DNA of 64,000 nucleotides from an uncultured Verrucomicrobiales bacterium (GCA_937930235.1 CALGLJ010000008.1:23-64022); one strand, 5' to 3'; positions 34,386-54,400 are shown, numbered from the stretch's first letter. The notes: a model not told the origin generated them from the letters alone. Program-made: numbers and translations.

Positions 34386-34562
34386 AAAACCGCAAGACGA
34401 GGGCCTTGATTCTTGGAAAAGATCTGATCGCGAACATGACGTGATGGGAAATTCACGAATGAGGGGTCGGCCCGACCAAAGCCAAAGTCAAGGCTCTGGA
34501 ACTTTACTTGCAGGCTTGGGGAATACCGTTGGACAGATGCCTTGTTTTCGGGATCTTCAAAG

Positions 34563-37302: not shown

Positions 37303-37515
37303 ATGAGCCTATCTTTGAGTCCCCCTAGCACTCCCATATGGCCTGCGGATCGTTTCGGCCAAAGCATCACGGAACTTCCCGATGGACGAAAGGTGCTCGT
37401 CGCAGGTGAGCATGAAGATCATTATGACGCAGATGTCTTTGTATTAGAACGAGCACACATTCGTTTTCAGTTCGTTAATTTATCTGAATTATTTATCTTT
37501 TTAAAGTATATATAA
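37303..37515 (+). pseudogene. Probable 5' remnant of a gene truncated at ~37440 by AT-rich DNA
   Basis: The first ~46 codons have normal composition (..IWPADRFGQSITELPDGRKVLVAGEHEDHYDADV). The reading frame then runs into extremely AT-rich sequence and stops (..FVNLSELFIFLKYI*). Confidence 0.3.
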
Positions 37516-37605
37516 TTATCTTTATTTTAAATTATTTTAATTCAATGTTATATCTATTGCCGCATTAATGGCGACAAACAAGAAAATTAAAAATTGGAAG
37601 ATACA

Positions 37606-38400
37606 ATGAAAAATCAAATAGACAGAACAATAGTAAATCGGATCAAACCAGGCTGGTTAGTAGCTTTAGCGATGTTAATGACTTCGTTCAATGTATTCGC
37701 AGAGAATCATTTCAGATTGGTTAATCCAATATCTCGAAGCTTTGATCACTTAGTGGTCTTCTCGGGAGAAGCGAAGTTTACGCCGGATTTCCCAGGTCTT
37801 GGGGGAATATTGGTAGGGGGATTCGGCGGTGGTAATGAAAATTTCCAAAAAAATGTGATGAAGCGAACTGACGAAGAAATTGAAGAAAATCGCCAAGAGG
37901 CAATTAATTTCTTCCAGACCAAGTTTGGGATTGATGCCAACGACAGCGCCAACATTCTGTTTTTTGGTTTTGAAATTGATCCAAGAACAAACCTGCGAAT
38001 GATTGTTCAGTCGAGAGCATTTGTCCCGCGCAGAGGCTTCAAGATTCGCGAAGGAGGCTGGGGAATTGCGGTATTAAATCCAGATGGAGTTCCTCTTGGA
38101 GGAGACTTTGAAGGGACTCTGCCTGCGGGCGCTTTTCTTGCTTTTGGGGAGTATAATATCAAGCGCCCTCACCGACGGAATATGATCATCAAATTTCAGT
38201 CAGACATACCCATTATTTCCAATGGGACTGACATCACAGCGGTTCGTTACAAGATTTCCAATAATCGACTCGGTGAAGGAATTGAGCAAAATACATTCAC
38301 TTTAACTGAATTGGAGGACGGACAAATCAGCTATCTCAAACGGTCTGTATTGACTTTCTCCGCTGATCGTAAGAAGAGACAAAAGCGATATTCGCGATAA
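37606..38400 (+). CDS. Exported hypothetical protein on an AT-rich segment
   Basis: 264-aa ORF with signal peptide GWLVALAMLMTSFNVFAEN and a basic C-terminus (RKKRQKRYSR). No motif recognised. One hand-counted line is ~40% G+C. Confidence 0.6.
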   Translation: MKNQIDRTIVNRIKPGWLVALAMLMTSFNVFAENHFRLVNPISRSFDHLVVFSGEAKFTPDFPGLGGILVGGFGGGNENFQKNVMKRTDEEIEENRQEAINFFQTKFGIDANDSANILFFGFEIDPRTNLRMIVQSRAFVPRRGFKIREGGWGIAVLNPDGVPLGGDFEGTLPAGAFLAFGEYNIKRPHRRNMIIKFQSDIPIISNGTDITAVRYKISNNRLGEGIEQNTFTLTELEDGQISYLKRSVLTFSADRKKRQKRYSR

Positions 38401-38618
38401 ATTCGGCGGGTGCTAATGACCCGTTTCACAGCCATCCCACAGGCTGAATAAACAAAGAAGTGGCTGGTGGTCGATCCTATCTGGGATCGGCCTACTTGTA
38501 AAAAACCAGCCAAAGCCAGAGTTCCGGTTCTCGCTCAATCTTGATCTATTTCCTTGTGTCACGTCATCAGGATCGTCCTTCGGAATCTTCATTATGACGA
38601 GAAGTCCGGTATTTGTCC

Positions 38619-39599
38619 TCACGAGCGGTGGCGAAAACGGAGGAAGGCGATAGCAAGAATCAGCTGGAGGCCGATCTTTGGCTCGGGGATGGTATTCACG
38701 ATCCAATCATGGTGAGGCCGTAGGTCGGTGAAAAAGGTGAGGTCGCCGTAACGCGAATCGTTGCGGGAAAAGCCTGAGGGTAGGGTGGGGTTGGTGCCCC
38801 AAGAGGTGATTCCGGCGAGCTGCCATGATCCATCGCTGCTGCTCTGAACAAGCAGGGGCCCTCCGCTATCCCCAGGAGCCGTGGTGGCCTCCAATGAGGT
38901 GGGCATGGCCTCGCTGATGGCGGGAGCTTGTTCCAGCACTGTGGCGCTGAGGGTTGGATTGGAAAAGCCGTCATCATAGAAGCTGCGGGCCACGGTGGAG
39001 GCTTGGAGAGCGTTGCGCCGTTCTGAGCCGTCGTCGAAGTCGGTGACTAGAAAACCGCCACCAAGGGAGGAGAATTCCCGATCGATCGTGTTGGTGCCAG
39101 CCAGGCGCATCGTGCTGCCGTTTGCCCCTAGGATGCCAGTTCCAGAAAAGCCCTGCCCGAGGAAAACTCCTTCACTCCCTAGAAGGCTGCTGCCGGAAAA
39201 AAGACTGGTTTTACGAGTGGTTGTCGGGTTCTTGAGCCGGAGTAACGCTAAGTCCGCCCCCTGGTTCAGTCCCGTAGTGGGGTTGCCGCTCCAGCCAGGT
39301 GCGAGTGAAATGAACATTGCTCGGTGAGATTTGCCACCCCGATGGATGGTGATTTGATCTGCGCTGAAACCATCGACGACGTGGGCTGCAGTCAAGACCC
39401 AACCGGGCTGAAATTCAAACCCGGTTCCCGTGCTACCAGTGCCGTTTCTCCGGTTGGCACGGATTTCCGTCAAACCGTTGAAGGCCACGTCGTTGGCCAA
39501 GGCAAGGTGGTCCTCCAGGGAGCCTCCGTGCTGGATGACCACTGCGTGAAGTGAGCTGAAGGCGCTGCACGTTGCGTAAAAAAGGGCTTTTAAAGTCAT
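38619..39599 (-). CDS. Secreted trypsin-like (S1) serine protease with a PEP-CTERM sorting signal
   Basis: Catalytic triad contexts LTAAHVV (His), ADLALLRL (Asp), GDSGGPLLV (Ser). The C-terminus TIPEPKIGLQLILAIAFLRFRHRS has the PEP motif, a hydrophobic helix and a basic tail. Confidence 0.85.
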   Translation of the reverse strand: MTLKALFYATCSAFSSLHAVVIQHGGSLEDHLALANDVAFNGLTEIRANRRNGTGSTGTGFEFQPGWVLTAAHVVDGFSADQITIHRGGKSHRAMFISLAPGWSGNPTTGLNQGADLALLRLKNPTTTRKTSLFSGSSLLGSEGVFLGQGFSGTGILGANGSTMRLAGTNTIDREFSSLGGGFLVTDFDDGSERRNALQASTVARSFYDDGFSNPTLSATVLEQAPAISEAMPTSLEATTAPGDSGGPLLVQSSSDGSWQLAGITSWGTNPTLPSGFSRNDSRYGDLTFFTDLRPHHDWIVNTIPEPKIGLQLILAIAFLRFRHRS

Positions 39600-39716
39600 A
39601 AACTTTCGTCTAGAGGAAATATAGTCGAAGGTAGGGTATATGCACAGCTTATCTGTTCCTTGAAGTCAAATACCTGCCAGCGCTGCTTTTTCTAACTCAC
39701 CATTAAAACACTCATT

Positions 39717-40961
39717 ATGAAAATTTTGACCTCTCTAAGCTTGCTCGCTCTCACCTACCATGCGCTCGCTGACATTGATGTCCCAGGAGCGAATGGCTCG
39801 AGCGGGGTGCTCAATATTACGGAAGACACTGTGATTGACCTTTCCCAGGCAGCCGACGGGGCTTGGGATGGTGCAAACACTGTGAACGGGATTTACGATG
39901 CTTCCCAATGGGCTGTCGTTTTCAACTACGCCAGCGTCAATATCGCGGAAGGAACCACCGTCACTTTCACAAATCATCCGAGCAAGGCTCCAGTAGTCTG
40001 GCTGGTGGCTGGTGATGTCACTATCGCAGGCACGGTGAGTCTGAATGGCCATGAGAGCCAAATTGCGCCGAGCTTGGCGGAAGGCGGGCCCGGAGGATTT
40101 CGCGGTGGAACTTCCAGCTTCCGCAGTAATCCGCGAGCAAGCGCTGGCTTTGGACCAGGGGGTGGGTTTCAGCAAAATAATGCAGGTCGTAGTGGCTCCT
40201 ACGGCACGGCGATCAGTGATTCTGCAACTTATGGAAATCCTTCCCTCATTCCCTTGATTGGAGGGTCTGGCGCCGCAGCGGACCCCGAACTGCAAGCTAC
40301 AGATCGTCGGGGCGGTGGTGGTGGTGGTGGAGCCATTTTGATCGCATGTGAGGGATCCGTGACTTTGACGGGAACTTTGAGAGCTGATGGAGGACAAGGA
40401 ATTAGTCCTAGGTTTTCAAATCTGAATAACTCCGGCGGCAGCGGTGGAGGGATCCGCCTTGTGTGCGATAGCTTTACCGGAGACGGAAATCTCACTGCCG
40501 CTGGTGGCTCTGGCTGGCAGGCTGGCGGTTCCGGGCGTATTCGTATTGAGCGCGTGTCGGCTTCCTCAGACCTCTCCATCGTGCCAGATCCATCTGTGGT
40601 TCCGATCGCGGCCAACGACACTGCGCTTTTGTGGCCGCCAGCGACTGCTCCACAGGTGCGTGTCGTCTCTATCGGCGGAGAAAACGCCCCAGCAGACCCT
40701 CGGGCGGCCTTTGGCGCGGAAGGCGCGGACGTTTCTCTCGGAGAAACTGAGAGTACGCCCATTGTGATCGAGACTACCAACGTCGAGCAGGCCTCGACCG
40801 TGCAGGTTCGCGTCACCCCCCGCTCCAATGCCAACGCCACTGTGATTGACGCGGCGGTTGATTCCGTTGTGTCCACCAACCCGCTTGTGGTGCGTTGGAC
40901 GGCTGACCTTCCAGTCAACACCGGATATTCGGCCGTCCAAGTCAAAGTAGTGCGTCCGTAA
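39717..40961 (+). CDS. Secreted glycine-rich (beta-helix-like) protein
   Basis: Signal peptide LSLLALTYHALA. Repetitive Gly-rich segments (RRGGGGGGGAILIACEGSVTLTGTLRADGGQG; NNSGGSGGGIRLVCDSFTGDGNLTAAGGSGWQAGGSGRIRI). A beta-rich C-terminal ~120 aa. 60 nt upstream of the giant gene. Confidence 0.75.
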   Translation: MKILTSLSLLALTYHALADIDVPGANGSSGVLNITEDTVIDLSQAADGAWDGANTVNGIYDASQWAVVFNYASVNIAEGTTVTFTNHPSKAPVVWLVAGDVTIAGTVSLNGHESQIAPSLAEGGPGGFRGGTSSFRSNPRASAGFGPGGGFQQNNAGRSGSYGTAISDSATYGNPSLIPLIGGSGAAADPELQATDRRGGGGGGGAILIACEGSVTLTGTLRADGGQGISPRFSNLNNSGGSGGGIRLVCDSFTGDGNLTAAGGSGWQAGGSGRIRIERVSASSDLSIVPDPSVVPIAANDTALLWPPATAPQVRVVSIGGENAPADPRAAFGAEGADVSLGETESTPIVIETTNVEQASTVQVRVTPRSNANATVIDAAVDSVVSTNPLVVRWTADLPVNTGYSAVQVKVVRP

Positions 40962-41021
40962 AGAGCGTCTGCCAGTCTAGAGAGTTTCATCTTTTTTCCC
41001 CATCGTTATTTGTTTCTGGCC

Positions 41022-44000
41022 ATGTCTCATCGGCTGATCCTTGCTTGTAGCCTCGTATTTTTTGCGTCTTCGCTTTGGGGGCAGGAGCTTCTTCTGCGCG
41101 AGGTTGTGTCGCGCGAGTATTCGCTGAGCATCGGGAGCGACTCCAGTGATCGGCACGTCACCTCGCGCGAATTTTCGCTCGCAGTGCGCTCGGGAAGAGC
41201 AGAGGGCGAAGTCACCAGTCGGGAACTCGTGTTGGCGGTGGCGGATGATGCTCCGCCGCCAGCCTTGACGGATTTCGGGATCGAGGTTTCGCCGACGGGG
41301 AGTGAAGTAAGCCTCGATTGGTCCGGATACGGAGCACCGCAGTACCGGGACATCGGTCAATTTTGGATCTATCTGTCTGATGACGGACCCATCACAAGCT
41401 TGGTCGACCTCACACCCGTTTTGACGACGGACGGAGAGACCTTTTCGGCGACGTTGACGGGTTTGAGTGAGTTTCGGGATCATTTTCTAGCAATCGTTCC
41501 GGTCGATAGTGCGGGGAATTTTGACCCAGCGGTTAACTACGGCGCGGCTTATGTGATCAGCCCGGAAATCATTTCGCGAGAGCTGTCTTTGTTCATCGGG
41601 AGAGAGCCCATTTCGCCATATCGGGAAGTTATTTCGCGCGAGTATGATCTTGCGATTTCTCCTTCCGAACCTCCGTCCGCGCTCACAGACTTGATGGTTT
41701 CCGTTTCCTCCTTGGGAGATATCGCGAGCTTAGACTGGTCCGGCTACAATCAAGGGGTCGAGGGACCGATTGAGCGCTTTGACATCTATCTCTCTGACGA
41801 TGGACCCATCACCGATGTCACGGGCCTGACCCCGCTGCGTAGCTTGCCGGGGATGAGCTTGAGGGTGGAATTGAGCGGGCTGAGCCAAAATCGAGACCAC
41901 TTTTTTGCAGTTGTGCCAGTGAATGCTGCAGGCGCCTTCCAGTCGGTGGTGAATTACGCAGCGGCTTATGTGCTTTCGCCCGAAATCGTTTCGCGAGAGC
42001 TGAGCCTCTTTGTGGGCGAAACGTCTGATTTAACTCAGGACGTTTCTATCGTTTCCCGGGAGTATGATATTTTGGTGCCTGATTCTTCGATACCCGCGCC
42101 CGTCACGGGAGGTGCAAGTGAGTTTTTAGTAACCACCTCCCGCACCGCCTTCGGGGCCGTGGATTTGGACTTCTCCGATTACAATGAATTGGAGCAGCTT
42201 GATGTCGTTCGCTACGACGTTTACGTCCAAGATCGCTTTTTTGACACGGTGACGGGCCTCACGCCTTTTGCACAGCTGCCTCTGGGGGATCAAAAACCGA
42301 TTCTGGCTGGTTTGCCGGGTGGGGCCATCCGGCACATTGCGGTGGTGGCGGTCGATGCGCTGGGTGGCTTTGATCCAACGGTGCGCTCGTTTTCGGCTCA
42401 GGCCTCAATTTCTGGATTGGGTGAAGTGACTGATTTAGCGGGTAGTGCCACGGGAACAACGCTGAGTTTTTTCTGGATTGCACCGGAGGATGCCGTGGAA
42501 TTTTTACAAGGCTTTGAAGTTCAGCTTGGTGATGCTGACCCGGTCCGACTTCCGGTCGCGACCACTTCCTATGACGTTACTGGGCTCACGCCCGCAACGG
42601 GGTATCCTTTTCGAGTCAGCACAGTTGATATTTTTGGTAACGTGAGCGGTGGGACGTCGTTGAATGCCTCCACACTTCTTCCTAATCCGACAGGGGTGTT
42701 TTTGATACAAAGTGGGGGGGACGCCCTTTTGCAATGGCAGCCGACTCAGCCTGAAGGGTTGGTTGCGTTTTACGAGGTGTATCGTACTCCGGCGGCCTTT
42801 ACCGATATTTCCGGTCTCCAGCCGTTGGGGGTGAGCTTGGGCACGGAGTTCAATGTTGGGCCCATCGCAGCATTGAGCGATGCGCATTTCGCGGTGGTAG
42901 CGGTCAATGCGCTCGGAGCTAAAGATCTGACCGTTGTCTCGATTTCTTCCGATAAGCAGGCGCAGACCATTACCTTCGCCGACCTCAGCTTAGGAGCATC
43001 TCCGCTGAGCCTTAATGCGATAGCGTCTAGCGGTTTACCTGTCATTTTTTCGGTCAACCCTCGAGTCGGGCGTCTCACGGATTCTGGAAATGCGGTGGAA
43101 ATTCTGCGAGGCGGGCTTTTGGAAGTGACGGCAACCCAGCCGGGGGACGCACGCTTTTGGGCTGCTCCGCCGGTGACTCGCATCTTGCGCGTTGCTCCAC
43201 TCATCCGCTCCTTTGCGGTTAATGGGGTAGAAATCACTCCGACTACCGAGATCGGCCTGCGCTCGGAAACTCTCTCGGTGGTGGCGGATGATGTCGATGG
43301 CATCCGGGAAGCGGAATTTTTCCTACGGCCTTTTGGAAATGGTGTTTTCACTAGCTTGGGGAGCGATCTCATTCCAGGGGATGGTTTATCCACGACCTTC
43401 CTCACCGCGCCTTTTGCACCGGGTCGCTATGATTTGCAGGTTACCGTTACTACTTTTGGTGATGTCACCAACTCGACCACTCGCTCTGTCTCTTTGGTAA
43501 GAAAAGTCCCGCTCCGCCCAGTTATTGAGTCACCCGCGTCTGGCCTACTTACCCGGAGTCAGATGCTTACGGTGACCGGAACTGCCGAGCCCGGAGCGCA
43601 GGTTCAGCTTTTCAGTAATGGTACGCTTTTGACGACGGTGGCCGCCTCCGAAGCGGGAGCGTTTTCCGGCACGATCTCGCTCCAGGCGGGCACGAATGAT
43701 CTGAGCGCCCGCGCTCTGAACGACGCGGGGGACAGTCAGGCTTCTGACCCTGTCTCAGTTACTTTAGAGTCTGCATTAAGTTTGGCAGTGATGCCGACTT
43801 CGGCCACTGAGGGGACAACTATTTCCCTGATTGTTTCTCGAAATCATGGTTCTGGGCGGTTGCAAGTGCGCTTGCGTGATGTGGTAGCGGGCCAAGTTAC
43901 GCTACCTACGTCTGTCATTTTACCTGATGGAGAAACGAGCGTTTCGGTCTTGGTGCCAGTCATTGATGATCAAGTGGCCGAGGCCACGAGTGGGCTGCGT

Positions 44001-47000
44001 CTATCGGCTACTGCTCCGGGATATCGCAGCGCAACCGCCACACTTTTAATCGAGGATGACGACCAACCGACGCTCACTCTTACGGCAAATCGCGAGGTCA
44101 TTGCTGAGGGTGCAGAATTGGGTCAACTTCGCTTCACTCTTACGAGGACGCCTGTTACCGCAACACCCTTTGTGGTGCAGCTTAGCAGTTCTGCGCCGGC
44201 AACCCTGAAAATTCCTACTCAAATCCAGTTTGGTCCCTTTGCGGGTAGCACTTCCTTCTTAGCTGAGTTGCCAAATAACGAGGAACAAAATGAAGACACC
44301 TTGGTGCGCATCGGGGCGCGGATTTTGGATGTCAGCTCGGGTGAATTGGTCAGCGAGGCCATGGAAACTGCGGTTTTGGTGACCGATGATGACGGTGCGA
44401 CCTTGCGACTTTCCTTTGATCAGCAGGCTGTTCCGGAAGGTGGGGTGATTAGTGGAAAAGTAAACCGCAGCGGACCCACTACCGCGAGTCTTACAGTTCA
44501 GCTCGCTTATACTCCGAGCGGTCGTCTTTCCGGTCCGGCTTCGGTGACGATTCCTGCAGACCAGAGGGAGGTGGGCTTTTCCATTGAGGGTCTGCCGGAT
44601 AACATTCTAGAAAACCAAGAAAGTATCGTGGTGCGGGCCCAGGCCTCCGAGTTTTCTCCCGTCGAACGCTCTCTGGTAGTTAATGATCTGCCTTTCCCCG
44701 ACCTCGTAGTGAGCCAGGTGAGCATTGATGCGCCTGTGCTGACGCAAGCGCTTACGAATTATCGTTACCGCCTGGCCAACCGCGGGGTGACCCGTACTCC
44801 TCGAGCCTTTGAGACGCGGGTGTATCTCTCTCGGGACGCGCTCCTGGATGTCGACGACGTTCTTCTGGAGGCCTATGAATACCCGGATCGCTTGGCTCCG
44901 GGCCAAGAAGTGGAACGTTCCGATTCTTTCAATACTCCCTCTGAGGTGGGCGATTACTTCATTTTGGTCGTTGTGGACCAAGCAAATGGAGTGATCGAGG
45001 TCATCGAAGACAATAATCTTCGGGCGTCCGCTCGGTTCGAAAATCAACCTGCCTATACCGCGTCCGTTTCTACCGAGGTGGAGGTGGCCCCGACCAACAG
45101 CGAAATTCCATTCACGGGAATGGCCACCAACTTCGATGGCTCACCTGCGGCTGAGAAGTTGGTTCATATCGCAATCAATACCGAGGACACCGAGCGTACC
45201 CTAGAGACTTTGACCGATGCGCAGGGCCGCTTTTCTACCATCTTCCAACCGCTGCGGGGCGAGGGCGGCACCTACGGAGTTGCGGCCCTTCATCCGGGAC
45301 AGCAGGAAATCGCGGTGCAGGATTCCTTCACTCTGCTCGGGGTAAGTACGGAGCCTCGTCAGCTGGCCCTGAGCGTCACTCGTGGAGGAAGCGCGACCAT
45401 GGATTCCTTTACCGTCAGTAATCTCGCCAATATTCCGCTGAACGAGATCACTTTTGAGCTCCTCGATGCTCCAGCAGGTTTGATTTTTGAGGGCTCGCTG
45501 CGCAATCTCACCGAACTCGATGGAGATAGCATGGCGGAGGCTGATCTCACAGTGGAGGCCAGTATGATCGCTCCAGATCTGTATGAAGGTCAAATGCGGA
45601 TTTGCAGTGTGGAGGGAGCGAAGCAGGACGTGCCGATTGTCATCACGGTTCGGGATCCTAGTAGTCGGCTTCTCTACGAGGGTGAGCCGATCGACCGAGG
45701 GATGTTGCGGGGGGATTCCAGTTTCGTAAATCTGCCTATTCGGAATCAAGGGGGAGCCCACAGCGGGCCGATTTCCATTTTGATCCCGTCTGAGTTCCCA
45801 TGGTTGACGGCGGCTACGGTCATGCCTGCGCCCTCGCTCGCTCCGGGGGAAAGGGCCGAGTTGACCTTGCAACTCACGCCGCCTGCCGATCTTGCATTTG
45901 GCGAATATACCGGAAGCATTGTGCTAGAAACGGGGTCGTCTCGAGTGAGCGTGCCCTTTGCTCTACGTCCAATTTCGGATCGTCTCGGCTCGTTCACGGT
46001 TTTGGCCGAGGATGAATTTACTTATTATGCGGAGGGCCGCCCGCCGCTAGCTGGCTGCCGGGTGCGGCTCTGCGATGTTTTCTCGCGAGAGATTGTGGCG
46101 GAAAGTACGACGGGAGCGGATGGGTTGCTCACTTTTGATGAAGTGGTAGAGGGTTACTACGTGCTCAAGGCTTCGGCCGAGGATCATGCAAACTTCGAGC
46201 GGACCATTTTCATCCAACCCGGAACGAACAATAGGGAAAATATTTTCCTCCAGCGCCAAACGGTGCGCTACACTTGGAATGTGGTGCCGACCAGGGTGCG
46301 AGATCGCTACCGCATTGTGCTGGAGACGGAGTTCGAGACCAATGTGCCTGCTCCCGTGGTTACGATCGAGCCTGCTTTTGTCGACTTAGACGAATTGACT
46401 GAAGAAACGACTCAGATTGACTTCACCATTACGAATCATGGTTTGATCCGTGCCGACGACGTCAGTCTAGGTTTCGGCTCGAATAGTGATTGGCGCATCA
46501 GCGCTCTGACCGAGGACTTGGGGGACCTTGAAGCGAAGAGTTCGAGGGTGGTGCCGGTAGTATTTCAAAGACTTGGTGAGAGGGCCCGGAACGCTCGCAA
46601 TTGTTCGGGCTCGATCTCTGGACGACTTCAGTGGTTCTATGAGTGTGGGGAATATAGCCTCAGTGGCTCCGTTGGTATCTCACTGGCAGCTAATGACCGG
46701 CCCGGGCAGAATTGCGGGGGAGGGAGAGTGACTCCAGTGGGAGGCGGAGGCGGAGGCGGAGGCGGAGGGAATTTTAATCCCGTAGCCAGCAGCAGCGGCG
46801 GATCCTGTGACCCCTGCGTGGCTCGCGCGATCCTAGATTGTGGGATTGGTTTCATTCCGGTGGTTGGTTGTGGATATGCGGCAGGCACTACCGCTCTTAC
46901 CTGTGCGGATCAGGGGGCGAGCCGAGACTGCCTTATTGATACTGCCCAGACTGGTTTCGGATGCGTGTGTGATGCCTTCGATCTGGCATCACTCGGGCTC

Positions 47001-50000
47001 AGCGGGGGGGTCTGTGGCGCTCTAAACTGCTTTGTAGATTTATTGCAGTGTGCTTTTCCGCAGGATATGCGGAGCCGAAGCTACGATGCTGTCTTGGCGG
47101 ACTTTCAGAGGGCAGGGCGTCGAGTGGAAGCAATGATGGAATTTGAACTCACTCTGGTGGGTGATCCTGCTTGGAGGCCAATTTTTGAAGAGGAAGGCAC
47201 CTCGGAATTCATGGAACTTTTCCGTCGCGATATTGCTGGGGAGACAGAAGCAGCAATCCAGATCACGACGGCGGAACGGGCCGCTCTCTTGAGCACGATG
47301 ACTGGGCAAAATCACCCTCAGTTGGTGGAAAGTCTGATCGAGAGGTGGCACCGCAGCCTCGATTACTGGGAGCGGGGTTATGTTAGTATCGAGGACATTC
47401 CGACTGGCGAAAGTCGAGATTTCATTGAGCCCCTACTTTTAGCGGAAGCAGGCACACGCATCGTGGCGGCCTATGATGAAGCTCGGGCCATGGGTTTTGA
47501 GGATCCGGTCGAGGCCTTTGGGGCATCCCTTCAGGATATGTTCGATTTTCTTTCTTCCGGTGATGGTGTTTGCGCGCGAGTGAGACTTCAGATCGAGCAA
47601 GAAGCAGTGCTGACTCGCGATGCCTTTGCAGCGTCTCTGAATTTGGACAATTCCGGCGTAGAGCCGCTGACGAATGTGCAAGTGGAGGTTCGCGTCCTGA
47701 ACGATAACGGGGAGGACTCGACAGATCTCTTCGGCATAGCTGGGCCTGAAATTTCTGGGCTAAATAGTGGTGTGGTCGCAGCAGGGAGTGCGGCGGACTG
47801 GGCTTGGACCATCATTCCGGGGCGGGAAGCAGCCCCTGAACAAGTAGAGATTTACTTTGTCGAAGGTGTTATCAGCTATGTGCTGGGTGGTATTCCGGTG
47901 GAAATTCCGCTTGCTCCGCAGCGCATCCGCGTGTTGCCCAATCCGAGCCTAAAAATTAAGTATTTCCACGAGCGCGACGTCTTTTCTGATGACCCCTTCA
48001 CAGATGTTATTGAGCCCAGCATTCCCTTCACCCTCGGTGTGATGGTAGAAAATACTGGCGGCGGTATTGCGCGCGATCTTTCCATCACTTCAGGCCAACC
48101 TGAAATTATCGAGAACGAAAAAGGCCTGCTCATCGACTTCGAGATCATCGGCTCCGAGGTGGATGGCCGTTCATTTACGCCTAGCTTGGAGGCGGACTTC
48201 GGCCAGCTCGTGCCTGGTGAGATCAAAATTGGACGCTGGCTTATGACCTCTAGCCTTCACGGTCACTTCCGTAGTTTCTCCGCCCAGTTTGAGCATCTCG
48301 ATGGCCTCGGGAACGAGAGCCTCTCGCTCATCGAGAGTGTGGAAATCCACGAAATGGTCCGACAAGTTGAAGTGACTGGTGCGAAGGCGGATGGTAAGCC
48401 AGACTTTTTGACCAATGACGTTGCGGATATCTTGAAGTTGCCCGATACAATTCACCTCAGCGATGGCTCCACCGCAACCGTTGCGGTCTCCACCGAAGCG
48501 ACGGTTGGGACTCCTACCGAGACAAATCTGACTATCCAGATCCAAAATACCGGATTGGGCAGCGGTTTTGGCTATTTGCGTATCGATGATCCCGCAGACG
48601 GCCGCTTCCGCCTGCTTTCCTGCCGTCGTTCGGATGGCCAGGAAATCCCCTTGAGCTCCAACGTTTGGGTGACGGATCGCACTTTCATCGGCTTTGGCCT
48701 GCGCCCAGTGCGGGAAAATAAGCTACATCTCTTCGATTGCGATAGCTCTGGCACCTACACCTTGACTTACGGAGTCGGACCAGCCGTGGATACCGAGGCT
48801 CCCACCAGCCGCGTGACTGCGCTCCCATCCTCTAGCAGCCCGCTCGTTACGGTGCGCTGGACCGGCACCGATACTGGAGATGGAATCGCTTCCTATGACG
48901 TATTCGTTTCAGAAAATGGAGGCGCGTTTTCACCCTGGCTCACTGGAGTCACCCAGACGGAGGCACTCTACCGCGGGACCTCAGGAGCTAGTTACCAATT
49001 TTACTCGCAGGCTATTGACCGTCAGGGGAACCAAGAGCCTGCTAAAAACACGGCGGAGGCTATGACTTTAATCGATCAGGAAAATCAGGTTCCCGTTCTC
49101 AATCTCCCAGCGGTGGTGCGAGTGGCGGAGGGATCTACCCTGATCTATCAAATTCAGGCTAACGACCTCGATGGCCCCACCTCAGATCTCCGCTTTGAGG
49201 TCACTAGCGCGAATCCTGGAATTATTATCGATCGTACCACTGGCCGCCTAAGGTTCCGCCCGGGCGAGGCGGATGGCGGTACCACCATTCCGGTAAACGT
49301 GATTGTTTCGGATGGGTCTGCGATTCCCGCTACCGCTCAAGGGACTTTCTCGATCCAAGTCGAAGAAATCAACGCAGCTCCGGTCTTGGCGAATCCCGGT
49401 AGTTATCAACTTGATATTGGACAACCACTTGCACTCACGCTGGCAGCGGAAGATGGCGATCTCCCGGCGCAGCAGCTTTCCTACAGCATCATTTCTGGCG
49501 CACCGACGGGGATGAATCTCCAGCCCACTAGTGGGCTTCTCACCTGGACTCCAACGGCGGTGGATGAAAAGAAAAGCTATCAGATCACGGTGGAGGTCTC
49601 CGATAACCAATCACCTCCGGCGGTGGCCCGGCGAACCCTCTTTCTAGAGGTCCTCGAAGATCCCGGCACTCCACCTGAGTTCGATGCCTTCCCGGTGCTG
49701 TCTTGGATGAGCGGCTCCGCTCAAAGTGCGACCCTCTCCGCCTCTGATCCCGAAGGTCAACCTGTTACGCTCAGCGCTGATCTTTCCGCCCTCCCTGGCG
49801 GCTGGAAAATTTTCGACGGACCACTGGATTCCGGCCGCGGCACCTTGGAATGGAGCCTTCTTGGTGTTCCCCCTGGAACCTACGAGCTTCCGGTCACTGC
49901 CAGCACTTCCCGACAGTCGGTGAGCCGCAATCTTACAATTGAAGTGCTGGTTCGTCCTGCCTTTGATTCCTTCGAAAGTTGGCTCGCAGCCTACTCAGTT

Positions 50001-50393
50001 CCCGCCTCCCAAAATGGTGGAAATGACAGTCTCAACAGTCCTGGCCTCCCCAACCTTCTTGCCTACGCCACCGGAGTAGACCCCCGCCGCATCCAAATCG
50101 CCGATCAACCCGCGTCGCCGCCGCAAGCGTCTCTTAGTGCGAGCCGAAACTCTCTTCTCTTCACGGCCCCCACTGTTGGGCGAGCCGATCTTATCTATGA
50201 AGTTGTTGCCTCCAATGACCTCTTTCGCACCGAGTCTGTTATCGCTCGGCGCACCGGAAGGGGCTCCTGGACAGGCTCGGCCAGCATCGAGATCTTGGAA
50301 ACCCGCGGAGGCTTGGATGTATTGAGGGTCGCAGGAGAGGCTCTGAACTCTGATAGTCCATCATTTATCCGCCTACGGATTCAGAGGCAGTGA
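41022..50393 (+). CDS. Giant (3,123-aa) secreted/cell-surface multidomain protein
   Basis: Uninterrupted ORF with signal peptide MSHRLILACSLVFFASSLWGQE. Approximate map by eye:
- 41.1-42.4 kb: three [SRE-motif + FN3-like] units
- 42.4-43.7 kb: FN3/Ig-like domains
- 43.77-44.69 kb: four Calx-beta-like domains
- 44.69-45.04 kb: CARDB (PDLVVSQVSI..)
- 46.05-46.26 kb: CarboxypepD_reg-like (CRVRLCDV..)
- 46.60-47.05 kb: Gly10 run plus Cys-rich hydrophobic segment
- 47.05-47.6 kb: helical region
- 47.6-48.4 kb: CARDB-like domains
- 48.79-49.07 kb: FN3
- 49.08-49.93 kb: four cadherin-like Ig domains
- 49.93-50.39 kb: C-terminal module. Confidence 0.9.
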   Translation: MSHRLILACSLVFFASSLWGQELLLREVVSREYSLSIGSDSSDRHVTSREFSLAVRSGRAEGEVTSRELVLAVADDAPPPALTDFGIEVSPTGSEVSLDWSGYGAPQYRDIGQFWIYLSDDGPITSLVDLTPVLTTDGETFSATLTGLSEFRDHFLAIVPVDSAGNFDPAVNYGAAYVISPEIISRELSLFIGREPISPYREVISREYDLAISPSEPPSALTDLMVSVSSLGDIASLDWSGYNQGVEGPIERFDIYLSDDGPITDVTGLTPLRSLPGMSLRVELSGLSQNRDHFFAVVPVNAAGAFQSVVNYAAAYVLSPEIVSRELSLFVGETSDLTQDVSIVSREYDILVPDSSIPAPVTGGASEFLVTTSRTAFGAVDLDFSDYNELEQLDVVRYDVYVQDRFFDTVTGLTPFAQLPLGDQKPILAGLPGGAIRHIAVVAVDALGGFDPTVRSFSAQASISGLGEVTDLAGSATGTTLSFFWIAPEDAVEFLQGFEVQLGDADPVRLPVATTSYDVTGLTPATGYPFRVSTVDIFGNVSGGTSLNASTLLPNPTGVFLIQSGGDALLQWQPTQPEGLVAFYEVYRTPAAFTDISGLQPLGVSLGTEFNVGPIAALSDAHFAVVAVNALGAKDLTVVSISSDKQAQTITFADLSLGASPLSLNAIASSGLPVIFSVNPRVGRLTDSGNAVEILRGGLLEVTATQPGDARFWAAPPVTRILRVAPLIRSFAVNGVEITPTTEIGLRSETLSVVADDVDGIREAEFFLRPFGNGVFTSLGSDLIPGDGLSTTFLTAPFAPGRYDLQVTVTTFGDVTNSTTRSVSLVRKVPLRPVIESPASGLLTRSQMLTVTGTAEPGAQVQLFSNGTLLTTVAASEAGAFSGTISLQAGTNDLSARALNDAGDSQASDPVSVTLESALSLAVMPTSATEGTTISLIVSRNHGSGRLQVRLRDVVAGQVTLPTSVILPDGETSVSVLVPVIDDQVAEATSGLRLSATAPGYRSATATLLIEDDDQPTLTLTANREVIAEGAELGQLRFTLTRTPVTATPFVVQLSSSAPATLKIPTQIQFGPFAGSTSFLAELPNNEEQNEDTLVRIGARILDVSSGELVSEAMETAVLVTDDDGATLRLSFDQQAVPEGGVISGKVNRSGPTTASLTVQLAYTPSGRLSGPASVTIPADQREVGFSIEGLPDNILENQESIVVRAQASEFSPVERSLVVNDLPFPDLVVSQVSIDAPVLTQALTNYRYRLANRGVTRTPRAFETRVYLSRDALLDVDDVLLEAYEYPDRLAPGQEVERSDSFNTPSEVGDYFILVVVDQANGVIEVIEDNNLRASARFENQPAYTASVSTEVEVAPTNSEIPFTGMATNFDGSPAAEKLVHIAINTEDTERTLETLTDAQGRFSTIFQPLRGEGGTYGVAALHPGQQEIAVQDSFTLLGVSTEPRQLALSVTRGGSATMDSFTVSNLANIPLNEITFELLDAPAGLIFEGSLRNLTELDGDSMAEADLTVEASMIAPDLYEGQMRICSVEGAKQDVPIVITVRDPSSRLLYEGEPIDRGMLRGDSSFVNLPIRNQGGAHSGPISILIPSEFPWLTAATVMPAPSLAPGERAELTLQLTPPADLAFGEYTGSIVLETGSSRVSVPFALRPISDRLGSFTVLAEDEFTYYAEGRPPLAGCRVRLCDVFSREIVAESTTGADGLLTFDEVVEGYYVLKASAEDHANFERTIFIQPGTNNRENIFLQRQTVRYTWNVVPTRVRDRYRIVLETEFETNVPAPVVTIEPAFVDLDELTEETTQIDFTITNHGLIRADDVSLGFGSNSDWRISALTEDLGDLEAKSSRVVPVVFQRLGERARNARNCSGSISGRLQWFYECGEYSLSGSVGISLAANDRPGQNCGGGRVTPVGGGGGGGGGGNFNPVASSSGGSCDPCVARAILDCGIGFIPVVGCGYAAGTTALTCADQGASRDCLIDTAQTGFGCVCDAFDLASLGLSGGVCGALNCFVDLLQCAFPQDMRSRSYDAVLADFQRAGRRVEAMMEFELTLVGDPAWRPIFEEEGTSEFMELFRRDIAGETEAAIQITTAERAALLSTMTGQNHPQLVESLIERWHRSLDYWERGYVSIEDIPTGESRDFIEPLLLAEAGTRIVAAYDEARAMGFEDPVEAFGASLQDMFDFLSSGDGVCARVRLQIEQEAVLTRDAFAASLNLDNSGVEPLTNVQVEVRVLNDNGEDSTDLFGIAGPEISGLNSGVVAAGSAADWAWTIIPGREAAPEQVEIYFVEGVISYVLGGIPVEIPLAPQRIRVLPNPSLKIKYFHERDVFSDDPFTDVIEPSIPFTLGVMVENTGGGIARDLSITSGQPEIIENEKGLLIDFEIIGSEVDGRSFTPSLEADFGQLVPGEIKIGRWLMTSSLHGHFRSFSAQFEHLDGLGNESLSLIESVEIHEMVRQVEVTGAKADGKPDFLTNDVADILKLPDTIHLSDGSTATVAVSTEATVGTPTETNLTIQIQNTGLGSGFGYLRIDDPADGRFRLLSCRRSDGQEIPLSSNVWVTDRTFIGFGLRPVRENKLHLFDCDSSGTYTLTYGVGPAVDTEAPTSRVTALPSSSSPLVTVRWTGTDTGDGIASYDVFVSENGGAFSPWLTGVTQTEALYRGTSGASYQFYSQAIDRQGNQEPAKNTAEAMTLIDQENQVPVLNLPAVVRVAEGSTLIYQIQANDLDGPTSDLRFEVTSANPGIIIDRTTGRLRFRPGEADGGTTIPVNVIVSDGSAIPATAQGTFSIQVEEINAAPVLANPGSYQLDIGQPLALTLAAEDGDLPAQQLSYSIISGAPTGMNLQPTSGLLTWTPTAVDEKKSYQITVEVSDNQSPPAVARRTLFLEVLEDPGTPPEFDAFPVLSWMSGSAQSATLSASDPEGQPVTLSADLSALPGGWKIFDGPLDSGRGTLEWSLLGVPPGTYELPVTASTSRQSVSRNLTIEVLVRPAFDSFESWLAAYSVPASQNGGNDSLNSPGLPNLLAYATGVDPRRIQIADQPASPPQASLSASRNSLLFTAPTVGRADLIYEVVASNDLFRTESVIARRTGRGSWTGSASIEILETRGGLDVLRVAGEALNSDSPSFIRLRIQRQ
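46740..46769 (+). repeat. In-frame (GGAGGC)n microsatellite encoding Gly10 within the giant gene
   Basis: gga ggc gga ggc gga ggc gga ggc gga ggg. Coordinates were cross-checked against the antisense poly-Pro ORF 46637..46888. Confidence 0.9.
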
Positions 50394-50621
50394 TGTTCAT
50401 CTCGCAGGAGCGAGTGTGCAGCGCTAGGATTTGTAGGATGAAATTATTTCGACAATGAAATATTATAAATTTTTATGTTAGAGGCCGTAAGAAATAGAAT
50501 AAAAAGTCAATGGTTTTAATGGAGGTAAAGTCCGTTGTGAGAAATCCGGGTAAGCGAGAATTTTCTTTCCAAAACAGGTGAATATGTGCGTAGGAAAGGT
50601 CGTCATATCGACGATAATATT

Positions 50622-51242
50622 ATGAAAGCTACTGCTAAAATCTCACTCATTTTTCTTTCCTGCTCATTTCTCGCAATGGTCTCTTCTTGCGATAAGGCTG
50701 AAAAAGCAGCCGAAAAAGCGAAAGAACAAACCTCGGAGATGAAAGACTCAGCTGCAGATGCTGCCAAAAGCGCAGTTTCTAATACTAAAGATGCTGCATC
50801 CGATGCGGCTAAGTCTGTTGCCGATGGCTCCTCCTCGATGAAAGACGCAGTCAAAAATACCGCTTCTCAAGCAACTCAAAACGTTAAGGAAGTTGCCACA
50901 AACGTTACCGAAGACGTCAAAAAGAAAGCCATGGAATCAGTCGATGCGGCGAAGTCTAAGGCCACCGATGCTGTCGACGCCGTAAAGTCCAAGGCCACTG
51001 ACGCTGTTGATGCGGCGAAGTCTAAAGCGACCGACGCTGTCGAAGGCGCTAAGTCCAAGGCCACTGATGCCGTCGATGCTGCTAAGTCCAAGGCGACCGA
51101 TGCTGTCGAAGGCGCTAAGTCTAAGGCGACCGACGCTGTCGACGCTGCTAAGTCTAAAGCCACTGATGCTGTCAAAAAAGCAACGGCTGGTGCTACTGAT
51201 GAAGCTAACAACGCTCTCAAAAAGCTGACTCCTGGACAATAA
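50622..51242 (+). CDS. Lipoprotein composed of 11-residue amphipathic repeats (LEA-/apolipoprotein-like)
   Basis: MKATAKISLIFLSCSFLAMVSSC has a V-S-S-C lipobox. The remainder is Ala/Lys/Asp/Ser/Thr-rich, with seven near-identical VDAAKSKATDA units. ATG at 50622 (the track uses GTG at 50586). Confidence 0.75.
   Translation: MKATAKISLIFLSCSFLAMVSSCDKAEKAAEKAKEQTSEMKDSAADAAKSAVSNTKDAASDAAKSVADGSSSMKDAVKNTASQATQNVKEVATNVTEDVKKKAMESVDAAKSKATDAVDAVKSKATDAVDAAKSKATDAVEGAKSKATDAVDAAKSKATDAVEGAKSKATDAVDAAKSKATDAVKKATAGATDEANNALKKLTPGQ
50940..51170 (+). repeat. Seven tandem 33-bp coding repeats (11-aa unit V[DE][AG][AV]KSKATDA)
   Basis: Residues 119-195 of the track ORF. The units differ mainly at synonymous third positions (aag tct aag gcc acc gat / aag tcc aag gcc act gac / aag tct aaa gcg acc gac). 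Confidence 0.9.
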
Positions 51243-51270
51243 TTTCAACATTTCCCTGCCTGCAAGATCG

Positions 51271-51311
51271 TCCCCATGGCCTTCCCCCCGGAGGTCATGG
51301 GGATTTTTTTT
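51271..51311 (+). terminator. Rho-independent terminator after the repeat lipoprotein gene
   Basis: TCCCCATGGCCTTC-CCCCC-GGAGGTCATGGGGA forms a ~14-bp stem with two G-U pairs, followed by a T8 run. Confidence 0.75.
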
Positions 51312-51456: not shown

Positions 51457-54400
51457 ATGCGCAACCTATTCCTCAGTCTGATCTTAGCACTGCCCCTGCT
51501 CGGTGCTGATCAGATCTACGACGCCTTTGAGTCCGACGGTTTTGGAGAATGGCAGCTCGAAGGTAACGCATTTGGAAAAGCCCCCGTTTCCGCAAGCCCT
51601 CAGGCCCTCAATGGGATCGTTAAAAATTACTCCAACGACTACTACGTCACTTCCTCTCATGGAGGGGATCGTTCCATGGGACAATTGACTTCCCCTGAAT
51701 TTGTCATTCAGAAACCCTATATTACTTTTCTTATTTCCGGAGGCTCAGACCAGGGAGAAACTGCAGTGCAACTCCTCATCGGAGATGAAATCGTAGCAGA
51801 ATCCACCGGCCGCCGTGACCTCGTGATGCGCCCCGCTCTCTGGCCCGTAGAGCAATTCAAAGGACAAAAAGCCCGCATTCGTATCATCGATCAATCCGAG
51901 GGGATCTGGGGTATTATCAATGCCGACCACTTCCTCTTCTCTGATCGACCGAACCCCAAGTTCCCGCTCACAACTCAAAAAGGTATTCCCCACGAAAAAG
52001 GCTTAGTTTCGGTAAAGGAGATTCCTGGCCTGACCATTCCCGAGGGCTCTGACTTAGCGATCTTTGCCAATCACCAAGAGCATGGGCTCCACTCACCCAC
52101 CGCTCTCACGGTAGACCCTCAAGGCCGTGTCTATGCCGTCGAAACTCATCGCTTCCGGGCGGGAGTCGAAGACAACCGAGACCACCTCTACTGGCTGCAC
52201 GATGACCTCGCCGCCCAAACCACCGATGACCGCCTTCAATTACATGAAAAATGGGCGCGTCGAAAACCCATCACTGATCTTACCGCCAATGAGGAAAAAA
52301 TTCGGCTCCTCATTGACACCGATGGTGATGGCAAAGCGGATAAAACCCACATCTTCGCCTCCGGATTCAATGACATCCTCGATGGCACCGCTGCCGGTAT
52401 CATGGCCCTAGAAGGTGTCATTTATTTCGCCTGTATCCCTAACATCTACACTCTTGAAGATGAGGATGGCGACCTGGTCTCCGATACTCAAACCATCTTA
52501 CAAGACGGCTTCGGCGTGCGCGTTTCCTTCTCAGGTCACGATCTCAATGGCTTCACCCTTGGGCCTGATGGACGTATCTACTGCACCATTGGAGACCGCG
52601 GCTTCAGTTTCACCACCAAAGAAAATCGCACCTATCGCTATCCCAATCAGGGTGCCATCCTCCGCTTTGATCCTGATGGCAGTAACTTCCAGGTCGTCCA
52701 CACCGGACTACGAAATCCCAAGGAAATCGCCTTTGATAAATACGGAACGGCCATCACCATCGACAACAATTCCGACCAGGGGGACCGAGCTCGCGTCGTC
52801 TTCATGATGGAAGGCGGCGATTCAGGATGGCGCATGGGGCACCAAGTCCTCCATTCATTTCATAAAACCGTCGGCATTCCCGAACGCCCGATCAACGCAT
52901 GGATGGCAGAGAAAATGTGGCAACCGCAGAACGATGCCCAGCCCGCCTATATCGTCCCCCCGATTGCCAATCTCACCTCCGGTCCCTCCGGACTCGCATA
53001 TTACCCTGGCACGGGATATGATAAAAAATCTAAAGATCAATTTCTCATCTGCGACTACCGGGGAAGCGCCCCCTCATCTGGTATTTGGCATTTTGGAATC
53101 AAGCCACAAGGAGCAGGTTTCGCTCTCAGCGAATACGGGAAATTTAATTGGGGAATCACCGCCACCGATCTTGAGTGGGGCTACGATGGTCGCATTTACA
53201 TCTCAGACTTTATCAAAGGCTGGACCACTCATGAGGGTGGCCGCATTTATTCTCTCGGAACCCCAAACCTCGCTCAAGATGTACTCGTTATCTCGACTCA
53301 GGAGCTCATTCAAAAAGACTTTACCACCATCGCAGAAGAAGAACTCGCCGATCTTCTCCGACACCCAGACCAGCGCATCCGCCTCCGCGCTCAAATGCAC
53401 CTCGCTCAAAAACCACAGGCCCTCGCATTCTTCACCGCCTCCGCAAATCAAAAGCTCAACGAAATCGAGCGTCTGCACGGCATCTGGGGACTAGGCATCC
53501 TCGCTCGGAAAAACCAGAGCCGACCTGCCATGAATTTCCTTGGCAGCCTTCTCGAAGATCCGAACCCGCGCATTCGCGCCCAAGCGGTCAAAGCTCTTGG
53601 CGATAGCTTCGTTCCCGACTCCCTCCCGCTCTTGCACCTGCTCCTAGACCCTGACCCACGTGTCCAGGCTCTCACCGCCCTCGCATTTTCCAAACATCCA
53701 CATCCAGAAGTCTACGACCAACTCATCCCCCTCATTGAAGAGAACAATGACCAAGACCCCTTCCTCCGCCATGCCACCAGCCTTTGCCTCGCGGCAAACG
53801 TAGATCAAGCAGGCCTCGCTGGACACCGGAACCATTCATCCGCCTCCGTTCGTCTCGCCGCCGTGATCGCGCTCCGCCGTTTTCACAGCCCTCTATTAGC
53901 ACAGTTTCTCGTCGATGATGACCCCCGTGTCGCCGATGAAGCAATCCGAGCCATACATGACCTTTCCATCGAACGAGCTCGCCCCGCGATTGCCGCACTT
54001 CTGGATAACTACGAAACCGCAAAGAACTCAGGGCGCAAAGTCTCCCCCATGATCATGCGGCGTCTTATTCATAGCGCCTTCCGTCTCGGGGAAGAAAAAA
54101 ATGTCGCCCGCCTGGTCAGAGTTGCCGCCAACTCCACGATCGGCATTTCTGAGCGCCTCGAAGCCCTCCGTCTCCTCTCTCTCTGGACAAAGCCTCCACG
54201 TGTCGACCCCTCCATTGGAAACTTCGCCCCTCTGAGCGAACGCGAGATCACCAAATTCAAGGCTGATCTTCTCAAGTATATCAACCTCCTCTTCACTACG
54301 GACTCCCTCGTACTTGGAAAAACAATCGCTCTCGCCTCTCAGTATGGGCTTACCCTAGATACCCTCGACACCGGCACGCTCACTCGCCTCGTTCGAGATC

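Follow-up and report, generated by a model that had tools for sequence, protein, structure and literature searches.

The locus and its conserved gene pair

A stretch of 64,000 nucleotides from an uncultured Verrucomicrobiales bacterium (GCA_937930235.1 CALGLJ010000008.1:23-64022), referred to here as the window, carries a gene for a glycine-rich (Gly-rich) protein, a giant modular gene directly downstream of it on the same strand and a trypsin-like protease gene diverging upstream of both (Table 1). The original prediction, made from the sequence alone, had bound all three into one candidate functional unit, a horizontally acquired mega-adhesin or surface-layer (S-layer) system with its own partner protein and processing protease. 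Comparison with related loci bore out the Gly-rich and giant genes as a unit, adjacent and co-directional across at least six phyla and co-varying in sequence, and left the protease outside it. The conserved unit is a two-gene pair and no trio.

The comparison was drawn from a genome scan with one genome per species, which returned 211 relatives of the Gly-rich protein, 80 of which were kept as comparison loci. These come from Verrucomicrobiota, Lentisphaerota/Victivallales, Kiritimatiellota (Pontiella), Desulfobacterales, Thiohalocapsa, Scalinduaceae, Phycisphaerales, Armatimonadota, Acidobacteriota, and Hydrogenedentes. The pair found in the window consists of a protein of ~415 amino acids (aa) bearing the motifs GPGGFRG, PVVWLV, and GRIRIER, followed on the same strand by a protein with a signal peptide and ExxSRExS (SRE)/FN3-like units. 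Among loci at 45% identity or above with enough downstream DNA, nearly all have as their next same-strand open reading frame (ORF) one that opens with a signal peptide followed by SRE motifs, and loci fetched singly from Haloferula chungangensis, two Desulfobacterales, a Verrucomicrobiales genome, and a JGI metagenome contig each had a large fn3 gene directly downstream on the same strand. When the ORFs of all 81 loci (the 80 plus the window) were clustered all against all, the recurrent families were the Gly-rich protein (81 loci) and its partner (59 loci), with no third conserved gene such as an usher, a barrel or an ATPase. Pairwise identities of the Gly-rich proteins were also found to follow those of the partner N-termini (r = 0.71, Mantel p ≤ 0.001, 51 pairs), the mean identity being 55% for the former and 41% for the latter.

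A single protein from the representative library, P0312 (1,426 aa), has a Gly-rich domain (aa 416-757) joined to SRE/FN3 units, fn3, and DUF11, an arrangement suggestive of a natural fusion of the two cassette genes. Several genomes contain two or more Gly-rich copies, some with different partners (L049/L064, L023/L086, L069/L087, L070/L073, and L058/L076), which fits a multi-copy, diversifying cassette. The Gly-rich proteins of Desulfobacterales are 63-69% identical to a Verrucomicrobiales one, many pairs from within Verrucomicrobiota being less alike, and transfer of the pair between phyla is therefore indicated. Judged from such sequence identities, the pair has probably crossed phylum boundaries over evolutionary time.

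The Gly-rich protein family

The Gly-rich protein begins with a visible Sec-type signal peptide and is rich in glycine loops (GPGGFRG, FGPGGG, and YGNPSLIPLIGGSGG) and in the rungs of a putative β-solenoid (GGGAILIA, GGSGGGIRLV, and GRIRIER). The motifs GPGGFRG, PVVWLV, YGN..L.PL.GGSG, GGG.GGGA.LIA, GGSGGGIR, and GRIRIER are invariant in the family alignment and the C-terminus is fixed (...VQVKVVRP). Gly, Pro, and aromatic residues make up most of the invariant positions, among which no catalytic set is evident. No match to the protein was obtained in Pfam, NCBIfam, PADLOC, PHROGs, or PDB sequences. Among 5.8 billion proteins, more than 4,553 matches were found, the best 120 of which were 52-70% identical over their full length and nearly all ~410-440 aa long, and a profile search of 1.84 billion representatives returned 4,876 clusters (clustered at 50% identity) at E ≤ 1e-3, including 1,174 at E ≤ 1e-30, almost all of the matches being standalone proteins of ~400-460 aa. 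The family is large and tightly conserved, and has neither a Pfam nor an NCBIfam model. A defence-system or phage origin was considered and dropped, no relevant PADLOC or PHROG matches having emerged beyond the similarity of FN3 to tail fibres.

The AlphaFold2 (AF2) model of the protein, built with 30 homologues, reached a predicted local distance difference test (pLDDT) score of 80.9 and a predicted template modelling score of 0.83, and displays N-terminal β-strands, solenoid-like rungs at aa 200-300, and a sandwich at aa 310-414. When the model was compared by Foldseek against PDB, just the C-terminal sandwich was matched (CBM21-like, E ~0.01), and against BFVD the matches were uncharacterised viral proteins, two of them named collagen-like (E to 1e-7, template modelling (TM) score ~0.3), with no enzyme fold in either database. 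The protein is thus modelled as a β-solenoid followed by a β-sandwich and is predicted to be soluble.

The giant partner: constant base and variable head

The partner is built on a constant base and a variable head, the N-terminal ~500-750 aa being constant across the family and the rest exchangeable. In a tblastn search of the giant of the window against the 80 loci, aa 1-500 were found in 53, aa 501-750 in 35, aa 751-1000 in 11, the central 1,000-2,750 region in ~24, and the last 123 aa in three. The signal peptide with SRE strands following it recurs in the partner proteins at other loci. In the window, E-x-x-S-R-E-x-S motifs lie at aa 30, 48, 66, 185, 205, 324, and 345; across the family the median is seven motifs per partner, with S-R-E conserved at ≥90% in some motifs and ≥70% in others. 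The SRE/FN3 unit matches no Pfam family.

What follows the base differs widely between partners. Complete shorter partners were assigned by Pfam Laminin_G_3 with cadherin, PA14 with CHB_HEX_C, Big_9/cadherin-like, GEVED, or Ig/PKD/CARDB domains, and one further partner has Laminin_G_3. A 3,727-aa Desulfobacterales partner (at L005/L017) continues after the shared N-terminal module with RHS repeats and a TEN_YD-shell, and is 41% identical to the giant of the window over the first 939 aa.

In the window, the N-terminal module is followed by an array of extracellular β-sandwich domains, among which Pfam supports fn3 (aa 475-536), Big_6/Glucodextran_B (834-914), CARDB (1226-1334), NPCBM_assoc (1569-1630), and CarboxypepD_reg (1675-1743), with weak matches to an MG4-like domain and three Calx-beta-like repeats. 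The modules listed in the original prediction thus stood in the case of FN3, Ig-like (Big_6), CARDB, CarboxypepD_reg, and cadherin-like domains, and the Calx-beta assignment remained marginal (E = 0.078). Its account of a Gly10 linker and a Cys-rich stretch in the centre was likewise accurate: the run occupies aa 1907-1916 (46740-46769) inside a segment (aa 1861-2010) that holds 14 of the 21 Cys residues of the protein. This segment has no Pfam match and is replaced by an unrelated one in some orthologues. The residue composition of the stretch that follows (aa 2015-2177) suggests that it may be α-helical. The C-terminal 134 aa have no Pfam match and show neither a membrane anchor nor a match to a sorting signal. 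This C-terminal module had been described as shared, a view that was not confirmed, for no second copy was detected in the window and it recurs in just three of the 80 loci, those of the closest orthologues. No enzyme domain was found in the giant by Pfam, as had been foreseen, and the ORF is undisrupted in close relatives, where it measures 3,103-3,309 aa; identity to the H. chungangensis orthologue amounts to 47% over 3,125 aa.

A conserved core without annotation

Within the variable head lies a 411-aa core (aa 2178-2588), which is 48-52% identical even to a Scalinduaceae protein and to proteins of other phyla, and whose motifs include YFHxRDVFSDDPFT, ENEKGLLIDF, FEHLDG, DGxPDFLxN, and WxTDRTF...ENxLHLxD. 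At least 181 database proteins contain the core region, a lower bound in that all are ≤716 aa long and the 3,123-aa source protein itself went unmatched though present in the collection, and in none of them is the region matched by Pfam. Some of the short matches are pieces of split giant genes. Elsewhere, the core is present in a 707-aa PKD protein and in a giant whose gene is split and whose N-terminus is of lectin/PPC type. Its profile gave no match among PDB sequences. The AF2 model is all-β (pLDDT 91.3), and Foldseek returned generic tandem Ig-like folds only (TM ≤ 0.22), pilins, integrin legs, and chaperones among them; the idea of a pilin or chaperone-usher protein was rejected on that ground. 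Conservation of this strength suggests that the core may recognise a particular ligand or partner. Like the core, the Gly-rich family and the SRE/FN3 module are currently unannotated.

Proteins with a transglutaminase core were encountered twice in the surroundings. The gene of the standalone 707-aa core protein adjoins one (L169, 8001-11066), and another, of 1,931 aa, lies near a Desulfobacterales cassette (L003, 1-4216). These placements may be coincidence.

The adjoining protease

The divergent gene encodes a protein matched by Pfam Trypsin (PF00089; 50.3 bits against a cut-off of 20.6) and Trypsin_2 (PF13365; 33.6 bits against 27.6). The catalytic triad was assigned by motif, with TAAHV (His), DLALLRL (Asp), and GDSGG (Ser) being invariant in its two orthologues. 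The protein ends in the tail IPEPKIGLQLILAIAFLRFRHRS, made up of IPEP, a hydrophobic stretch, and RFRHRS, in which IPEP is invariant among the orthologues. The PEP-CTERM hidden Markov model (HMM; PF07589) left the tail of the window protein unmatched and matched that of one orthologue (L002) at E = 0.039, below the cut-off, with no NCBIfam match; a confirmed PEP-CTERM assignment was dropped for this reason and the tail is termed PEP-CTERM-like only.

A homologue of the protease (43-44% identity) stands upstream of and divergent from the pair in two of the 80 other loci, those of H. chungangensis and the Verrucomicrobiales genome SVL2_sbin.37. It is missing from the remaining 78, including relatives at 66-70% identity; upstream of the pair, two close relatives without it have an aldose epimerase gene with one for an M42 peptidase in one case and a Mur ligase gene in the other. 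A metagenome scan with the single protease query found no relatives, and one with a protease alignment brought up 80 distant relatives, at most 37% identical over the best-matching segment; the Gly-rich gene or a giant N-terminus lay within 4 kb of none of them. The protease was accordingly rejected as a core component on synteny. The trio thus co-occurs in two of the 80 other loci, and as a general three-gene unit it is not supported, two of the closest relatives lacking the protease. In the three fairly divergent genomes concerned (the window and the two others), the trio is kept while the other flanks differ; a local functional link is therefore possible. Judged from gene order, the protease is a lineage-specific accessory neighbour in a small Haloferula-related clade, where it may trim surface proteins, the general cassette doing without it.

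A neighbour of another kind was seen in two Desulfobacterales loci, in which homologous genes (33% identity), without a recorded Pfam match, lie upstream of the Gly-rich gene, adjacent to it in one (L005, 9206-9922) and one gene further off in the other (L003, 5924-7294). They may represent a clade-specific accessory, like the protease in the Haloferula clade.

Layout, borders, and composition of the block

The three ORFs, the divergent gap between protease and Gly-rich genes, and the tandem gap of 60 nt from the Gly-rich stop to the giant ATG (41022) had been described correctly, the ORF list and a separate gene call on a Logan contig being in agreement (Table 1). This contig (L001; ERR9287624, 11,925 bp) corresponds to ~38.6-50.5 kb of the window and contains just these three genes, called at 326, 414, and 3,123 aa with the ATG start used for the giant; an alternative TTG start at 41010 would add four aa. 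Its assembly stops at both AT-rich borders of the block, where the assembly may have broken off in low-G+C DNA or strains may differ. The search for a sigma-70-like match in the divergent region, the counterpart of which measures 67 bp in one orthologous locus (L002) and 105 bp in another (L010), was negative, as was that for a terminator-like site in the 60-nt gap.

Table 1. Coordinates of the protease, the gene pair, and the segments of the giant protein in the window
Feature	Position	Strand	Basis and remarks
Protease ORF	38619-39599	-	ORF list; 326 aa
Divergent intergenic region, protease/Gly-rich	39600-39716		117 bp, 39% G+C, AT-rich
Gly-rich gene	39717-40961	+	ORF list; 414 aa
Giant gene	41022-50393	+	ORF list; 3,123 aa from ATG
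Giant, signal peptide	41022-41084	+	aa 1-21, read from sequence; first SRE strand directly after
Giant, constant N-terminal module	41085-42431	+	aa 22-470; seven ExxSRExS strands, three FN3-like units
Giant, β-sandwich domain array	42444-46250	+	Pfam
Giant, Cys-rich, Gly-rich variable segment	46602-47051	+	14 Cys
Giant, putative helical segment	47064-47552	+	aa 2015-2177; poorly conserved; no Pfam family
Giant, all-β core	47553-48785	+	aa 2178-2588, 411 aa
Giant, FN3-like domain, then He_PIG, cadherin-like, and Big_9 repeats	48786-49988	+	Pfam
Giant, C-terminal module	49989-50390	+	aa 2990-3123, ends ...FIRLRIQRQ

The block has a G+C content of 55.9% against 49.7% for the rest of the window, a smaller contrast than the 63-65% against ~55% proposed at the outset from hand-counted lines: 17% of the 60-nt lines in the block reach 63% G+C, against 2.6% outside. 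The AT-rich DNA said to bracket the block was confirmed, the flanks measuring 40.9% (37440-38600) and 37.0% (50394-50620). G+C at codon position 2 is 0.48-0.56 in the block genes against ~0.40-0.44 elsewhere, and at position 3 (GC3) it is moderately raised (0.55-0.65 against ~0.44-0.60); part of the excess, at position 2, arises because the encoded proteins are rich in Gly, Ala, and Pro. The next large gene downstream (51457-55932) also has 53% G+C, and the block is therefore no sharp compositional island. No tRNA is present in the 64-kb window, no direct or inverted repeats bracketing the block were found, and the flanks of the window are shared by none of the 80 fetched loci, all of which come from other species. 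With a composition shift of six G+C points that lies partly in codon position 2, recent horizontal acquisition of the block has no clear support, and neither a tRNA nor flanking repeats or conserved flanks speak for a foreign island as a general feature of the pair.

Several neighbouring genes deserve mention. Two photolyase-related genes with a slight overlap (34542-37212, + strand) are matched by DPRP and FAD_binding_7 and by FAD_binding_7, respectively. They are followed in the AT-rich stretch by a 268-aa ORF (37594-38400, + strand) with a signal-peptide-like start, 42.6% G+C and a GC3 of 0.41, the lowest of the window; neither Pfam nor NCBIfam matched it, and by composition it looks more foreign than the block itself. 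Just past the giant, a 218-aa ORF (50586-51242, + strand) has a signal-peptide or lipoprotein-like N-terminus ending in Cys, at least six tandem 33-nt repeats (11 aa, of AKSKATDAVDA type) and weak Apolipoprotein and Ag473-lipoprotein-like matches, and is succeeded by the strongest terminator-like hairpin of the region (51270-51304). The large gene beyond it, mentioned above for its G+C content, lies on the + strand and encodes a 1,491-aa haem-binding CxxCH protein of the Planctomycetes-Verrucomicrobia-Chlamydiae (PVC) type, with TIGR02604 and TIGR02603 above cut-off as well as DUF7133, HEAT repeats, and a cytochrome c domain; by this protein the window is assigned to the Planctomycetota-Verrucomicrobiota group.

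Proposed role and rival explanations

Giant surface proteins are common in Verrucomicrobiota and related phyla, where little is known about their export, retention, and assembly. The reading preferred here, to which we assign a probability of about one half, sees in the pair a cassette for a surface fibre or adhesin, with the Gly-rich partner docking or assembling its constant base. The first gene encodes a strongly conserved protein of ~415 aa with a Sec signal, predicted to be a Gly-rich β-solenoid followed by a β-sandwich, and the second a modular protein with a Sec signal; in the window, what comes after the constant part of the latter is ~2,500 aa of Ig-like, CARDB, and cadherin-like domains arranged about the 411-aa core. 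The giant would form an extended extracellular fibre of adhesin type; at the cell envelope, the Gly-rich partner would bind its constant N-terminal base and dock, cap, or help to assemble this base, and binding specificity would reside in the variable distal part. Gene order, family sizes, domain content, co-variation, and the variability of the distal part are established; physical binding, surface location, and adhesion are inferred. The idea of a mega-adhesin with a partner is in this respect retained from the original prediction, for its adhesin-type extracellular domains and the partner link, and parted from the protease and the island.

A number of observations weigh against the adhesin cassette. 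In neither protein was a membrane anchor, lipobox, outer-membrane barrel, or known sorting signal recognised that would account for its crossing of the outer membrane or its retention there. Homologues below ~45% identity often lack the SRE-type neighbour, and the putative fusion P0312 is a single case that could be an artefact of gene calling or assembly. In the AF2 model of the Gly-rich protein, confidence is low for its most conserved loops (aa 120-200), and the stronger conservation of this protein relative to the partner N-terminus would also suit an enzyme or a machine component.

Were the Gly-rich β-solenoid such a secreted enzyme, acting for example on polysaccharide beside a carbohydrate-binding giant that captures polymers, the LamG, PA14, and CBM-like folds of the distal parts, the sulfatase genes near two loci and the very strong conservation of the family would all find a place, as would the carriers Pontiella, Haloferula, and Lentisphaerota, which we take to be polysaccharide-degrading lineages. 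Many lyase and hydrolase β-helix structures are deposited in PDB, yet Foldseek against PDB recovered none of them with the model, no carbohydrate-active or other enzyme family was matched, and the invariant residues are of the mostly Gly, Pro, and aromatic kind already described; we consider the proposal very unlikely. The trio as first conceived, with horizontal acquisition, an S-layer-like or mega-adhesin function, and the protease as the dedicated processing enzyme of the giant, fares somewhat better in that the divergent arrangement is retained in H. chungangensis and SVL2_sbin.37 despite different other flanks, the protease has a triad intact by motif and a surface-sorting-like tail, the block stands ~6 G+C points above surroundings with AT-rich borders, and a separate assembly broke exactly at those borders. 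Set against this are the absence of the protease from 78 of 80 loci, relatives at 66-70% identity among them, the failure of its distant relatives ever to adjoin the pair (0/80 metagenome loci), the want of a tRNA or flanking repeats, and a G+C excess that is partly a matter of amino-acid composition. No SLH or comparable S-layer domain was found by Pfam and nothing else points to an S-layer; the trio as a whole strikes us as improbable.

The swapping of everything distal to a constant N-terminus raises a further proposal, in which the Gly-rich protein and the SRE/FN3 N-terminus would, with a logic like that of two-partner secretion, form an export or presentation device for polymorphic effectors with a C-terminal payload that may be adhesive or an RHS-encapsulated toxin. 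The Desulfobacterales partner with RHS repeats and a TEN_YD-shell after the same module, the genomes with two or more cassettes and the apparent movement of the pair between phyla are what such a trafficking device would lead one to expect. RHS, toxin, and immunity-like elements are, however, missing from the giant of the window, the prediction for the Gly-rich protein is a soluble solenoid and sandwich with no membrane barrel, neither an immunity gene nor a secretion ATPase is consistently linked in the 81 loci, and most distal parts are lectin- or Ig-type binding domains; the proposal is unlikely. A broader and still doubtful possibility is that the Gly-rich protein and SRE/FN3 module constitute an undescribed device that presents, assembles, or exports exchangeable giants across phyla, with payloads of both adhesin and RHS toxin type, taking the role that two-partner or type I secretion has elsewhere, and that the 411-aa core is a second new functional module.

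Should the Gly-rich partner be an anchoring or assembly factor, the pair would represent a novel means by which diderm cells display large proteins. More than 1,000 clusters (E ≤ 1e-30) of an unannotated family are tied by gene order to an N-terminal module on exchangeable giants, and the Gly-rich family, the SRE/FN3 module, and the 411-aa core provide annotation handles for thousands of "hypothetical" genes. Cultured carriers include Haloferula chungangensis, H. sargassicola, and Pontiella sulfatireligans, and the pair is experimentally tractable.

Comparison with known systems

No description of the pair was found in the literature searched, which is no proof that none exists. The glycine-rich rungs GGGAILIA and GGSGGGIRLV recall the GGA[ILV] motifs of the polymorphic membrane proteins of chlamydiae, a β-helix family of the PVC group; the Gly-rich protein differs from these in having no Chlam_PMP Pfam match, no autotransporter barrel, and a length of only 414 aa. 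The marks of a chaperone-usher pilus were not found, for the pair has no conserved third gene in the 81 loci and the likeness of the core to pilins and chaperones is that of a generic Ig fold.

Two-partner secretion (TpsB with TpsA, as in FhaC/FHA) likewise places a small constant gene beside that of a giant exoprotein, the N-terminus of which is constant and the distal part variable and adhesive or toxic. In the present pair, however, the partner lies upstream and is predicted to be a soluble solenoid and sandwich with no Omp85/POTRA barrel, and neither protein gave a Pfam match to ShlB, POTRA, Bac_surface_Ag, or Haemagg_act. The giant adhesins secreted by type I systems (LapA, SiiE, and MpIBP) resemble the giant in that several thousand residues are strung into Ig-like, cadherin-like, and Calx-like domains, the binding-type modules lying towards the distal end. 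The giant of the window differs from them in its N-terminal Sec signal peptide and in having no RTX family by Pfam, and no gene recurs beside the pair in the 81 loci, although the neighbours were not individually scanned for ATP-binding cassette (ABC), membrane fusion (MFP), or TolC proteins.

The constant-head, variable-tail organisation of RHS/YD-shell polymorphic toxins and teneurin-like proteins is also reminiscent of the partner family, in which the Desulfobacterales relative at L005/L017 joins the same N-terminal module to an RHS/YD shell, whereas the giant of the window is devoid of RHS, YD, and toxin domains. Neither the SRE/FN3 module nor a Gly-rich partner is mentioned in those parts of the polymorphic-toxin survey by Zhang et al. 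(2012; PMC3482391) that were covered. As for the protease, it is akin to secreted trypsin-like proteases with sorting tails, such as Vibrio VesB/VesC (GlyGly-CTERM) and the PEP-CTERM/exosortase substrates, in its S1 family, its signal peptide, and its short C-terminal motif with a hydrophobic and then a basic tail, and differs from the latter substrates in falling under the PEP-CTERM HMM threshold. By analogy, the Gly-rich protein and the giant may be likened to large modular surface proteins that are accompanied by an accessory partner.

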